Shown piece by piece: positions 33,001 to 36,000 of a DNA stretch of 63,589 nt (position 1 is its first letter; every line of letters begins with the position of its first letter). Made by a program: the position numbers. This DNA comes from a plasmid, in the NCBI RefSeq assembly GCF_055900595.2, contig NZ_PP320290.1; one strand, written 5' to 3'.

Positions 33001-36000
33001 GCTGGCCGAGCAGGTCAGTAAACTGCTTCAGCGCTGCAAATAATCATTGATGGGCTGGCATTGCCAGCCCTGTTCACCCCTTACGGTAGCGCCCCGCATG
33101 GCGCAGGAGTCTGAAATGTCATCTGAAAAAACTCTCCCGTCGGTCGATCTGATGTCCTGCCAGCATGGCGGTGAAGTGATCCCGTCCATAGCTATTGAGC
33201 GCATTATCTCGTTGCGGAATGAAGGTATTCGCGTCTATCTCGACGGCATAGACAAGCTGCGAAAAGCGCGCGATCTGATGCAGCAGGCCGGAGGCTGTCA
33301 GTACCTGTATGACTACGACAAAGCCGTAGAGAGCGCGATCAAATGGAGCGACACCAGACCAGACCAGGCCGAAACGGCTATTTCCCGCGTTATCGACGGA
33401 AAAATCTGGGATCGGCTGATGTCGGAAACCGGCATGTATACGCTGATGAGCAACAAACAACGTCAGGAATGGGATCGGCAGGTGGCAGGCGAGGAAATGC
33501 CGCCGATAACGCTGGAGAACGTTATGAGTACGTTCCGGCACCTGAACGCAAGCAAGGCCGATACTTTCACGCAAGGGCTGATTGATATCTTTAAATCCCT
33601 GTCGTGGGATTATAAAACCAATAACCCCTGCATGTTTGGCAAGCGTATCATCATCGCGCCGTTGCTCGATGTCTGGCGCAGTAGCTGGGTGCGCTTCAGC
33701 TCAGACGGGCACACCAAAATTGACGATCTGGCGCGGCCGTTCTACGTGCTGGACGGGCGTAACGTGCCTGATTACCGCGTTTCTGACGGTGCCAAACTGG
33801 ATGCCTTTTTCAGTGAAAACCAGTTCAACGGTAAGGTGTTCGAGTGTGATTACTTCAGCGTGCGATATTACAAAAAGGGCAGCGCGCACATTACGTTTAA
33901 ACGCCCGGAGCTGGTTGAGAAGATCAATAATCTGGTTGCCAGTCACTATCCCGGAATGTTACCCCCTCGCGTGTAATGCAGACGGCAGGCCGCATTTGCG
34001 GCCTGAAATATAAACAGGGAAAGGAAGTATTCCCCGGCCTGAAAAAATCATGCCGGGCATGTATTTATTGCTTGATTAATATGGCTCATTAGACGTATAA
34101 TAATCACATCGAAAGGCAATGAGGCTTTTCGCGGTAGCGCCCCGACTGGCGCAGGAGTAATAAATATGGCTATTCAATCCCTTCAGTTCCGTAACGGCTC
34201 CGTTTCTCTTGGTGATGTTTTTGTTTCCAGCTGGGGTTATGAGCAGACAAATACCTGTTTTTATCAGGTGATCGCCCTGCGCGGTAAGAAAACCGCCGTA
34301 CTGCGCCGCATCGCTGCGCAGCAGGTGAAAGCAGACAGTGCAATGTCTGGCGAGTTAAAGCCGGTATTGAACGACTTTAAAGGCGAACCCGTGACCCGTC
34401 GCATCTGTGAAAACCATGAGCATCCGTCTGTCAGCATTGACGAGTACGAACAGGCTTATAAGACCGATCCTAACGAAAGCCATTTTTACAGCACCTGGGG
34501 CTGACCGCCTGCTACGCCCCGCAAGGGGCGTATAGTCGAAGACTTATTCAACCAAAACGTGAATACTATGCGAAATAACAAGGCGCTCAGGACGCAGATA
34601 CATGGCGGAAACAGTTTATCAGGCGCGGAGGCGTTTTTACCTTCTCCGTTTTCGGCGCAGTCGTAACCCGGACACACTGGAAAAAATGTACGAATCCATG
34701 CGGGATCGTGGACAGGTGCCGCCGGAGGACACCGAGGCTTTTGAGGCTGCCGCCGACCATCGCCGCGCAGAGCTGGCATCGGGACGCATCTGGGATAAGA
34801 TCCCGCCGCATGTCTGGCAGTATGTAAAATAATCACAGCGCCCCTACACGGGGCGTTTTTTTGCTTGCATATATGGCTCATTAGACGTATAATGTTTTTA
34901 CTGATTCAAATCAGTACCTTCCTAAACAGCCTTACAGGTGCATTATGACCTCTTCTGAAATCCTCCATAACCTCCCTCAGATTATCACGGCCGTGGCCGC
35001 CCTCATTACAGCCATTACCGGGCTGATTAAAGTCATGAAGGATAAAGGTAAGGACTGAACCGCCGCAGGGGGCGACAGCCCCCTGCATCCCTAACCGGCA
35101 GCGCCCCGACTGGCGCAGGAGTAAAAAAAGTGACAACGCTGCATATTCGAGAAATTCCCACTGATGGAGCGCCGCCTATCTGTGCAGGCCGCTCAATCTC
35201 AGATGATGACCTTTGCGCCTCATGCCAGCATCTCGACTATCGCCCTGGGCACCTCAGCGCCTGCCTGCTGTCAGGTTGCGGGCGTGACGACTGGCCTTCA
35301 GAACTGGATGCAAACGGCTACAGCGTTGCCTGTAGCAGCTATGAGCGTGAAAAATCGCTTGATTAATATGGCTCATTAGACGTATAATTATCACATCGAA
35401 AGGCATCCGGTCTTTCGCGGCAGCGCCCCGACTGGCGCAGGAGTTTTACAATGCACGGTAACGTAAATGAAATTTGCGCAAGGCTTCTCGATAGTTTTGA
35501 TCCACAGCAGCGGATCAGCCTGCTGATCTGGACTGCTGAAGATGTCCATGACTGCACCAGTGATATGAACCTCACTGACGATGAGGCCGAAGCCGTTCTG
35601 GCAGAAATCGCGGAATGCAGTTCACACAGCCGTTATGGCGTCGGAAAAGATACCGTCTGGAGCCTGGCAAAGCAGGTGCGCGAAGATGCCGCCCGCGATC
35701 GAAAAATAGAGGTCAATGCCGAGGCGCTGCAAAAAGTCGTGGCGCTGGCGGCGCAGTTTATCCGGCTGGAAGAAATCCAGTCTGGTGAAGGAGCTGCACG
35801 CCGACTTTATCCGCAGGAGTCTGAGGCGCTGGAGTGCATCACGAAGGTGATTAACGGCTAATTCACGCAGTAACGCAGCGAACTTTCACGGTAGCGCCCC
35901 GACTGGCGCAGGAGGAAAAAACATGTCCCAGAATGAAGCCTATTACGACACGCTGGCCCTGATTGAAAAGGGGCAATGGTGTTTCGGCAGTATGGACGAA

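Follow-up and report, generated by a model that had tools for sequence, protein, structure and literature searches.

The leading-region Hha-family gene rmoA and the tra-embedded hns-hha pair of a pOXA-48-type IncL plasmid

Hha- and H-NS-family genes of the plasmid

The plasmid pOXA-48 is the main vehicle of the OXA-48 carbapenemase, and the reasons why it establishes cheaply in new Enterobacterales hosts are understood only in part. The window analyzed here, the whole stretch of 63,589 nucleotides (NZ_PP320290.1), is a complete pOXA-48-type IncL plasmid. A six-frame tblastn census of the entire window, using the three plasmid proteins together with E. coli Hha and H-NS as queries, yielded two ORFs of the Hha family, one of the H-NS family and no further Hha or H-NS locus (Table 1). 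ORF calls and Pfam family matches confirm the places that a preliminary description, made from the sequence alone, had given for these three ORFs. All three are previously known genes rather than new discoveries: the leading-region Hha gene is named RmoA in PMC12365149 Table S1, and the pair embedded in the tra region is Orf36.1/Orf36.2, first known from plasmid R446. An Rfam scan gave no match at the rmoA locus or at the tra-embedded hns-hha locus; elsewhere in the window, Rfam matched just the repBA pseudoknot and two copies of IS10 RNA-OUT.

Table 1. Positions of the features discussed, in window coordinates
Feature	Position	Strand	Remarks
Promoter-core array	27001..38515	+	nine copies of ATGGCTCATTAGACGTATAAT, all directed to oriT
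Promoter cassette of orf27-rmoA	34072..34165	+	TTGATT-18-TATAAT at 34072-34101, including the invariant 21-nt core (34081-34101); two-hairpin 5' UTR/RBS module at 34127-34165
orf27	34166..34504	+	ORF, 112 aa, first gene of the orf27-rmoA unit
orf27-rmoA intercistronic spacer	34505..34601	+	GC hairpin at 34513-34532 without a T-run
rmoA (Hha-L)	34602..34832	+	ORF, 76 aa, Hha/YmoA family, leading region
Intrinsic-terminator-like hairpin	34837..34865	+	AGCGCCCCTACACGGGGCGTT then TTTTTTT; ends the orf27-rmoA unit
nic site of oriT	40158..40166	-	ACATCTTG/T, exact match to pCTX-M3 nic
hha-T (orf36.1)	49195..49392	-	65 aa; alternative ATG at 49407 gives 70 aa
hns-like orf36.2	49379..49789	-	136 aa; alternative ATG at 49807 gives 142 aa

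Judged from its sequence and predicted structure, rmoA encodes a conventional Hha-family protein. The product (RefSeq WP_004187345.1, "Hha/YmoA family"; C-terminal end ...AADHRRAELASGRIWDKIPPHVWQYVK) matches the Pfam HHA profile (PF05321) with E=1.7e-15 and a score of 57.5 bits (cut-off 25), and its residues 15-73 span profile positions 1-57 of 57. Comparison with PDB structures returned YmoA (3e-13) followed by Hha (3e-11). The AF2 model (pLDDT 84, pTM 0.70) has four helices, and its top Foldseek matches are 1JW2 and 4ICG_C/D (probability 1.0, TM 0.67-0.75, rmsd 2.8-3.3 Å), predicting a small all-helical Hha fold without a DNA-binding domain. Acidic residues of the Hha E25/D48 type contact H-NS, according to the Hha/H-NS structure 4ICG and mutagenesis work. 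RmoA E27 and D52 align with these two residues, the basic helix-1 residues R16, R18 and R19 are kept, and all these residues are conserved across the Hha-L clade with one exception, a D-to-N change in P0006. With both its H-NS-contact residues and its predicted Hha fold preserved, RmoA likely binds host H-NS.

RmoA resembles Hha, YmoA and Cnu (YdgT) over its full length at 35-40% identity (1JW2, 4ICG and Yersinia YmoA 2K5S), sharing with them the helical fold, the E25/D48 equivalents, the basic helix 1 and the lack of a DNA-binding domain. In contrast to these proteins, members of the Hha-L clade are extended at the N-terminus, have gained two residues in the stretch joining helices 2 and 3 (ESMRDR) and carry the tail WDKIPxHVWQYVK; they are also plasmid-borne, in the leading region. 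RmoA also falls below the NCBIfam cut-offs of the Hha subfamily and YdgT equivalog models (58 versus 90 bits).

The hns-hha pair is placed antisense between traL (48658-49194) and traM. The hha-T gene shares 14 nt with the 3' end of hns, and the overlapping 65-aa form is conserved among relatives; the Orf36.2 start at 49789 is preceded by GAGG and is the RefSeq call. Orf36.1 matches Pfam HHA with E=1.9e-8 and 34.9 bits (cut-off 25) and, among solved structures, Hha at 3e-6. Its contact acidic residues are kept, swapped in kind (D26, E49), the last three C-terminal residues are missing and W68 is changed to F. The C-terminal domain of Orf36.2 matches Pfam Histone_HNS (29.3 bits, cut-off 25.6), and the protein contains TWTGKGRRP, an instance of the T-W-T-G-x-G-R-x-P motif that is invariant in relatives; its N-terminus scores 19.4 bits against Histone_HNS_N, under the cut-off of 24.5. 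The AF2 model of Orf36.2 is H-NS-like, with helices at 3-25, 29-70 and 75-86, a disordered linker and, at the C-terminus, a domain of beta-hairpin and helix, and a Foldseek search with the whole model gave no informative match. In a by-eye alignment, R18 of the 136-aa form falls at H-NS R12, a Hha-binding residue.

The ORFs and Pfam matches thus agree with the preliminary description of an hns gene (TWTGKGRRP) and an overlapping hha gene lying antisense between traL and traM. That description also took the leading-region copy to be the diverged one, and here the relation is reversed: RmoA matches YmoA at 3e-13 whereas Orf36.1 matches Hha at 3e-6, and the two copies share 34% identity.

The pair is the same module as the "orf36"-antisense hns-hha of R446/pCTX-M3 (IncM), with no difference, and rmoA is a separate gene, whose product is 34% identical to Orf36.1. 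Deletion of "orf36" in pCTX-M3 removes the antisense hns/hha, increases the traH transcript ~120-fold and raises mobilization (PMC6112013, PMC8125031), so the earlier statement that the pCTX-M3 pair modulates transfer was essentially right. In pOXA-48, a published orf36.1 deletion decreased conjugation 3-fold, and published CRISPRi silencing of orf36.2 destabilized the plasmid in E. coli. Expression of the IncL/M pilus has been reported to be temperature dependent, tied to the R446 hns/hha genes.

The orf27-rmoA unit, the promoter array and oriT

The preliminary description had rmoA sitting alone with its own terminator, and only the second half of this holds. A promoter scan of 34505-34601 found no promoter-like site for rmoA itself; the closest one is at 34072-34101, 5' of orf27, placing both genes in one transcription unit. 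The spacer between them has a fold z-score of -2.8, and AGGA lies 9 nt 5' of the rmoA ATG. No family match for orf27 was found in Pfam or NCBIfam. The terminator is represented by a terminator-like hairpin and T-run, scanned at 34837-34857 and delimited more widely as 34837-34865, and the next promoter copy follows directly 3' of it.

Eight of the nine promoter-core copies are exact (28519, 32778, 34081, 34873, 35368, 36343, 37270 and 38495) and one is diverged (27001), with a chance expectation of 0; the promoters are near-identical and resemble the consensus. The RBS hairpin GCGCCCCGACTGGCGCAGGAG occurs in ten copies in the array, also directed to oriT. The same promoter family serves klcA (antirestriction) and the ssb operon. 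These sequences place rmoA, the second gene of its unit behind orf27, in a leading-region regulon of nine promoters. The promoter/UTR cassette was found in ~1300 records, IncL/M-like ones only, and in a Serratia relative hha carries its own copy of it.

The array is similar to CUP/ArdK of the IncN plasmid pKM101, and also to the IncP kor system, in that repeated conserved promoters precede successive leading-region genes, under a plasmid repressor that is presumed for the array; for IncN CUP/ArdK, repeated leading-region promoters controlled by a repressor are on record (PMC6289460). However, no nucleotide similarity between the array and IncN CUP was detected, homology at the DNA level was rejected and the likeness is one of analogy only. 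Hha, moreover, is not known as a member of the IncN regulon. The promoter core was also considered as the published KorC operator and rejected, the KorC site lying at the orf24-korC promoter, outside the nine copies; this site presumably lies near 29.3 kb in the window.

The nic sequence matched here is that published for pCTX-M3 in PMC8125031. It is on the minus strand; therefore, the minus strand enters first, from 40158 downwards, and the leading region was defined as coordinates below 40158. rmoA lies 5.3-5.6 kb from nic, its stop codon at 5.3 kb, and the transferred strand is the template for the plus-strand leading genes, including rmoA. The nic match confirms that the second Hha gene lies in the leading region, and its strand suits post-entry expression. 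A search of 29-40 kb revealed no long local inverted repeats or hairpins of the kind expected of Frpo-like ssDNA promoters, and "early" therefore means after second-strand synthesis.

Relatives and inheritance of the two loci

A word-indexed homologue search yielded close relatives only, 24 for RmoA and 6 for the H-NS-like protein. In IncL/M-like (MOBP/MPF_I) plasmids, the distance between nikA/oriT and the rmoA orthologue (62-100% identity) is always 2.5-5.6 kb. Those at 62-71%, from Rosenbergiella, Serratia, Salmonella and one metagenome contig, are located 2.5-5.1 kb upstream of the nikA-relaxase genes with Antirestrict, SSB or ArdA genes as neighbors. Every sampled relative retains rmoA, including those with another gene in place of the upstream partner: an orf27 homologue precedes hha in the Rosenbergiella plasmid contig, but in the relatives from Serratia and Salmonella the preceding ORF is a different one, with a signal peptide. 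With synonymous sites close to saturation, rmoA has a dN/dS of 0.07-0.16, a pattern of substitution that places the orthologues under strong purifying selection.

The three genes had been described as a single silencing module split between the leading region and the tra operon. This picture is not supported by GC content (57% for rmoA versus 45.5% for the hns-hha pair), by distribution (rmoA in ~1167 PLSDB records versus 947 with the pair at >=95% identity) or by the independent recombination of the two loci. Hha-L occurs at 96-97% identity in NZ_CP142694.1 and pE20-qnrS, the former an IncFII-replicon/MPF_I plasmid. Window positions 19.4-37.3 kb are 89-97% identical to NZ_CP142694.1, and no nucleotide similarity to it was found in the tra region. 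A tblastn search of this whole plasmid detected no H-NS and no second Hha, and its traL-like gene abuts traM. A lineage with a 53%-identity hns-hha pair is tied to a 68% RmoA orthologue only via a 90%-nt-identical nikA-traK flank. Since rmoA is found in a sister lineage without plasmid H-NS, the two loci are separable units, and sequence comparison indicates that they are inherited separately, on independently recombining modules. The same lineage lends support to the earlier idea that an orphan Hha may use the recipient's H-NS: it has an Hha with neither plasmid H-NS nor a second Hha.

RmoA of R100 (IncF) belongs to the same family and gave the pOXA-48 gene its name. In an R100-like IncF plasmid, however, hha (~43% identity) is flanked by finO and repA2, at the transfer region's trailing end and not in the leading region. 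IncX and IncI2 plasmids have topB-hha(-hns), with a plasmid Hha of ~50-54% identity that adjoins plasmid H-NS in an IncX-type plasmid; hha there adjoins the topoisomerase gene in the maintenance region, whereas rmoA is in an oriT-proximal promoter array. The idea that plasmids in general carry an Hha in the leading region was rejected, as the gene lies elsewhere in IncF, IncX, IncI2, pEA60 and Klebsiella IncF plasmids. The hns/hha genes of IncHI1 R27 and Sfh of pSf-R27 share the concept that plasmid-borne silencers limit the cost of entry and thermoregulate transfer. In R27/Sfh a full H-NS homologue serves for stealth, whereas the candidate early factor of pOXA-48 is an Hha without a DNA-binding domain, and, unlike R27/Sfh, RmoA in one lineage comes without any plasmid H-NS.

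Possible roles of RmoA

The best explanation overall, to which we give a probability of about 0.45, is that RmoA acts as an Hha co-silencer, made in an early pulse and recruiting the recipient's H-NS/StpA. Once the complementary strand is made in the new host, the promoter array would fire ahead of repressor build-up (zygotic induction), in a manner parallel to the IncN CUP/ArdK and IncP kor regulons. The RmoA pulse would pair with the recipient's H-NS/StpA, and later also with plasmid H-NS, by docking on the N-terminal dimerization domain of the H-NS-family protein, and H-NS silencing would become stronger. A model in which chromosomal H-NS requires Hha for silencing foreign DNA is reviewed in PMC6606824. 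The extra Hha may aid host H-NS in silencing the plasmid's few AT-rich tracts together with the tra genes, thus lowering the entry cost. The tra-embedded hns-hha operon would be a separate, older insertion confined to the tra backbone of IncL/M and would govern transfer and stability once the plasmid is established. An early "stealth" role may plausibly be inferred for rmoA. That RmoA represents a conserved class of leading-region establishment factor, an Hha pulsed at entry from a multi-promoter regulon and co-opting recipient H-NS to silence, and thereby hide, the plasmid ahead of any plasmid regulator, has a fairly low probability.

Several observations count against the co-silencer explanation. 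In published Tn-seq of E. coli MG1655 (K-12), rmoA was neutral for transfer (log2FC 0.09, p=0.94; only 4 TA sites) and non-essential for maintenance, and in a published CRISPRi screen of 13 clinical strains it was absent from the significant genes and unnamed in the main text. Enterobacterial recipients produce Hha and YdgT of their own, which may make an extra Hha redundant. The incoming DNA, earlier described as AT-rich, is not so overall: plasmid GC is 51.2%, that of the leading region 49.7% and that of rmoA 57.1%, and only seven tracts, each of 300-650 bp, are below 40%. The lack of ssDNA-promoter-like hairpins also weighs against it.

It is possible, if rather unlikely, that RmoA is a steady-state regulator acting with H-NS in established donors in response to temperature or osmolarity, its proximity to oriT being incidental. 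R100 RmoA, R27 Hha and pOXA-48 Orf36.1, to which it is likened in this respect, tune conjugation or other plasmid genes; the 3-fold drop in conjugation on orf36.1 deletion and the temperature-dependent IncL/M pilus expression linked to R446 hns/hha fit such a role. Plasmid hha genes are also often away from oriT, for example between finO and repA2 in an IncF plasmid, in topB-hha(-hns) of IncI2 and IncX, within the tra operon of pEA60 and in an accessory region of Klebsiella IncF plasmids. However, rmoA insertions left transfer unchanged in Tn-seq, and position, orientation and promoter family are conserved down to 62% identity, which is hard to reconcile with an irrelevant position. The neutral Tn-seq result and the absence of a reported CRISPRi signal, together with the swapping of the cassette between backbones, would fit redundant cargo in Enterobacterales that encode Hha and YdgT, riding on an often-exchanged leading/maintenance cassette. 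The low dN/dS over saturating synonymous divergence and the retention of rmoA despite upstream-gene replacement make this improbable.

An anti-silencing role has as little probability: RmoA would over-occupy or mis-assemble the recipient's H-NS and briefly relieve xenogeneic silencing as an anti-defense measure. The gene does lie among antirestriction genes (klcA; ArdA in relatives) and ssb, and anti-defense genes are enriched in leading regions (PMC11541004). Nevertheless, RmoA is a canonical Hha in sequence and predicted fold, including the basic helix 1 and the E25/D48 equivalents, and has no resemblance to truncated H-NS antagonists; canonical Hha enhances silencing rather than relieving it (PMC6606824). 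Already disfavored, and very improbable, is a toxin/antitoxin pair of the TomB-Hha kind. The ~112-aa ORF directly 5' of the Hha gene recalls the chromosomal tomB-hha operon, where an ORF also directly precedes hha. However, orf27 has no TomB/YbaJ or other family match in Pfam or NCBIfam, the upstream partner is not conserved among rmoA orthologues, and the equivalent of Hha C18 is Ser in RmoA.

The genes concerned are already annotated and partly characterized. New here are the conserved nikA/oriT-proximal position and purifying selection of rmoA and its occurrence without plasmid H-NS; the value of the work lies in the independence of the NAP loci, the predicted membership of rmoA in the nine-promoter regulon and the absence of an rmoA phenotype in the available genetic screens. 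If RmoA indeed recruits recipient H-NS at entry, this would account for the persistence of rmoA in plasmids without their own H-NS and offer a possible target for blocking pOXA-48 establishment. Manipulation of nucleoid silencing would then join antirestriction and SSB among the functions of the leading region.

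Genes for nucleoid-associated proteins

At 63,589 bp, the window comprises an entire IncL plasmid of the pOXA-48 type, and a 4-kb query around rmoA, the leading-region hha gene, matched many 63.5-65.5-kb pOXA-48 records at 100% identity (e.g. pOXA48-191663, NZ_CP080360.1). All three open reading frames and motifs of the preliminary description were found: rmoA and, between traL and traM, the hns-like orf36.2 and hha-like orf36.1. Six-frame tblastn with the three proteins and E. coli Hha and H-NS as queries revealed no further Hha or H-NS loci in the plasmid. RefSeq names RmoA a "Hha/YmoA family nucleoid-associated regulatory protein" (WP_004187345.1) and labels the tra-embedded pair H-NS family and Hha/YmoA family. 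Table S1 of the pOXA-48 Tn-seq paper assigns RmoA, Orf36.1 and Orf36.2 to the HHA, Hha and HNS_MvaT superfamilies, respectively (PMC12365149). The three genes and their families are therefore already known from RefSeq and the literature, the tra-embedded pair with functional data. Rfam also reported two inverted IS10 RNA-OUT copies and, at 111 bits, the repBA regulatory pseudoknot. A long stretch of the Pri/LPD7 primase-like protein consists of near-identical APVASAPAA(A/D)EPEE repeats.

RmoA had been taken for the diverged paralogue; instead it is Orf36.1 that diverges, with weaker matches to solved structures (3e-6 at best, versus 3e-13 to YmoA and 3e-11 to Hha for RmoA). The two proteins share 34% identity and score 57.5 (RmoA) and 34.9 bits (Orf36.1) against Pfam HHA (cut-off 25). 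The 4ICG structure and mutagenesis work identify E25 and D48 of Hha as H-NS-contacting residues. In our alignment, RmoA and its clade retain their equivalents as E27 and D52, and likewise R14, R16 and R17; the equivalent of Hha C18 in RmoA is Ser. In Orf36.1, Glu and Asp trade places (D26, E49), F replaces W68 and the final three residues are missing. The best structural matches of the RmoA AF2 model (pLDDT 84, pTM 0.70) are Hha 1JW2 and 4ICG_C/D, the latter being Hha complexed with the H-NS N-terminal domain (probability 1.0, TM 0.67-0.75).

Orf36.2 scores 29.3 bits for the C-terminal Histone_HNS domain (cut-off 25.6) and 19.4 bits, under the cut-off of 24.5, for the N-terminal Pfam H-NS profile. 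In its AF2 model (pLDDT 78), three helices at the N terminus lead through a disordered linker to a C-terminal domain of beta-hairpin and helix, a predicted layout that matches H-NS architecture; Foldseek of the entire chain was uninformative. The hns start proposed earlier, 49789, is the most likely one and has a GAGG Shine-Dalgarno. The reported hha-hns overlap is real (14 nt, across the hns stop), but the hha start at 49407 gives way to the ATG at 49392, the form kept in relatives. The RefSeq/PGAP call for Orf36.1 is only 51 aa (44265-44420 of the record), a length that would leave out helix 1 of the Hha fold.

Coordinates of features in the window
Feature	Position	Strand	Remark
IS10 RNA-OUT copies	9418-9486; 11810-11878		
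Promoter core and hairpin copies	27001-38515	+	
Diverged promoter copy and orf19-orf20	27001-28047	+	
Promoter-like site closest to rmoA	34072-34101		TTGATT-18-TATAAT
orf27	34166-34504	+	
rmoA	34602-34832	+	76 aa
Terminator-like hairpin and T-run	34837-34857		
Hydrophobic ORF	34945-35058	+	37 aa
P37270, region	37240-37295		
178-aa ORF	38579-39115		
mobA/nikA, region	40011-40574	+	
mobA/nikA, annotated CDS	40047-40574		175 aa
nic	40158-40166	-	
Pri/LPD7 primase-like gene	45279-48716	+	
'orf36' frame	49145-49810	+	221 aa
orf36.1 (hha-like)	49195-49392	-	65 aa
orf36.2 (hns-like)	49379-49789	-	
hns promoter/traM 5' region	49751-50100		under 40% GC
repBA pseudoknot	63468-63589		

Leading-region position and promoter array

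The published pCTX-M3 nic, ACATCTTG|T, matches the minus strand exactly, so the minus strand is transferred and DNA below 40158 enters first. The second hha gene does lie in the leading region, as proposed: rmoA is 5.3-5.6 kb in from nic, and the T-strand serves as template for its transcription, which runs toward oriT. The annotated mobA/nikA CDS overlaps nic; its start is probably over-extended, because the NikA-like proteins of relatives are 103-109 aa long. rmoA had been described as standing alone with its own terminator. A terminator-like hairpin does follow it, but the gene shares its promoter with the upstream orf27, and the promoter scan found no promoter-like site between the two.

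On the leading side, a 21-nt promoter core (ATGGCTCATTAGACGTATAAT) occurs nine times (chance expectation, none): eight copies are exact and the one at 27001 has diverged by three mismatches. A hairpin-plus-Shine-Dalgarno (5'UTR) module (GCGCCCCGACTGGCGCAGGAG) occurs there ten times. All copies of both are on the plus strand (27.0-38.5 kb) and directed toward oriT. Behind these cassettes are orf19-orf20; an 87-aa ORF and, after it, a DUF3085 gene; ccgA1 and a DUF4942 gene; orf27-rmoA; a small ORF; a DUF1380 gene; klcA (antirestriction); an ssb-containing operon; and the 178-aa ORF. The ribosome-binding module is absent from rmoA itself. For a Serratia rmoA orthologue there is a dedicated copy of this promoter/UTR cassette, which argues that rmoA is a regular member of the array regulon.

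The array resembles IncN CUP/ArdK, where a plasmid repressor binds conserved elements repeated upstream of leading-region genes (PMC6289460), but the two have no DNA-level homology. The cassette is restricted to ~1300 IncL/M-like records. We found no description of the nine-promoter array in the literature consulted; the pOXA-48 Tn-seq paper reports a single KorC site only, at another promoter (PMC12365149). No Frpo-type long inverted repeats were found in 29-40 kb, so any early expression would come from double-stranded DNA, before repressor build-up.

orf19-orf20 is driven by the diverged promoter copy. Orf20, published as essential to plasmid maintenance, is XRE-like in Pfam below the cut-off and has homologues (39-45% identity) on ~2900 other plasmids; our analysis makes it a candidate for an ArdK-like repressor acting on its own gene and on the entire array. 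At P37270, an inverted core half-site (CGTCTGATGAG) 12 nt upstream of CTCATTAGACG forms a 22-nt imperfect palindrome, which may be an operator. P34873, where the usual UTR module is missing, is immediately followed by the hydrophobic ORF (MTSSEILHNLPQIITAVAALITAITGLIKVMKDKGKD), which may encode a small membrane peptide.

Distribution of rmoA and the hns-hha pair

The hns-hha module was found at ≥95% identity in 947 PLSDB records, and in relatives with just 53-85% H-NS identity it is again antisense in the same traL/traM gap, so it is old within this tra backbone. The 'orf36' frame antisense to it is stop-free (221-223 aa) in relatives with 53% identical H-NS and stays open in 11-17% of synonymous-codon shuffles per sequence; it is a candidate overlapping gene.

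RmoA was found at ≥90% identity in ~1167 records. The excess includes IncFII-type-replicon plasmids with a different MPF_I transfer system (NZ_CP142694.1, pE20-qnrS), whose leading regions match the window at 96-97% identity. In NZ_CP142694.1, a traL-like gene directly abuts traM, and tblastn of the whole plasmid detected no H-NS and no second Hha. Window positions 19400-37340 (partition, maintenance, leading region) are 89-97% identical to this plasmid; no nucleotide similarity was detected in oriT, relaxase or tra. These comparisons indicate that the leading region has been exchanged modularly between backbones. The distributions thus place rmoA and hns-hha on independently recombining modules, contrary to the single split silencing module first envisaged. 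RmoA can be a true orphan, and its partner would then be host H-NS or none.

Plasmids of enterobacteria very often carry Hha genes (at least 5000 records matched), in varied settings: between finO and repA2 on an R100-like IncF plasmid, so that the name RmoA reflects homology, not position; in a topB-hha(-hns) cluster on IncI2 and IncX-type plasmids; sense-oriented between traX and traY on Erwinia pEA60; and in an accessory region on Klebsiella IncF plasmids. RmoA orthologues of 62-97% identity were sampled from a Rosenbergiella-type contig, Serratia quinivorans, Salmonella and a metagenome contig. All of them share their strand with nikA-relaxase, sit 2.5-5.1 kb upstream of it and adjoin antirestriction, SSB or ArdA genes. 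The clade has a dN/dS of 0.07-0.16, with synonymous sites close to saturation. The upstream partner varies: an orf27 homologue in the Rosenbergiella contig only, a signal-peptide ORF elsewhere. For orf27-rmoA, a TomB-Hha-like toxin/antitoxin pair was rejected on three grounds: orf27 has no family match, orthologues do not keep the partner, and Ser occupies the C18 position.

Possible roles of RmoA

RmoA is most likely a conventional Hha, which would bind H-NS-family proteins at the N-terminal domain and enhance silencing. Its predicted binding to host H-NS is supported by the conserved residues, modelled fold and orphan lineage. Expressed from a zygotically induced regulon, RmoA could act early with H-NS and lower the cost of entry. 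This proposal, that an early Hha recruits recipient H-NS onto incoming DNA, is reasonable but unproven. The incoming DNA is not AT-rich as had been supposed: the plasmid is 51.2% GC overall (leading region 49.7%, rmoA 57.1%, hns-hha 45.5%), with only seven tracts under 40% GC, each 300-650 bp, one of them the hns promoter/traM 5' region.

The sole genetic data on rmoA are neutral: in Tn-seq, it was non-essential in input and transconjugant libraries (log2FC 0.09, p=0.94; only 4 TA sites). RmoA might instead be redundant cargo travelling in the exchanged cassette, an anti-silencer lifting host H-NS silencing, or a steady-state transfer regulator in established donors. Functional data exist for the tra-embedded pair. 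Deletion of pCTX-M3 'orf36', and with it the antisense hns/hha genes, raised traH ~120-fold and increased mobilisation; the pCTX-M3 authors later drew attention to these genes, whose first description, in R446, dates from 1994 (PMC6112013, PMC8125031). In pOXA-48, Δorf36.1 lowered conjugation 3-fold, and plasmid stability suffered, chiefly in E. coli, when the H-NS gene was silenced or deleted. rmoA goes unnamed in the main text of the CRISPRi paper, and the main leading-region surveys mention neither Hha nor H-NS. One study sets H-NS plasmids and leading-region (PsiB) plasmids apart as opposite strategies, an opposition into which IncL/M does not fit neatly.

Taken together, what is new here is that the RmoA clade keeps its place in the leading region, that rmoA is part of a nine-promoter array and that it is independent of the hns-hha module.
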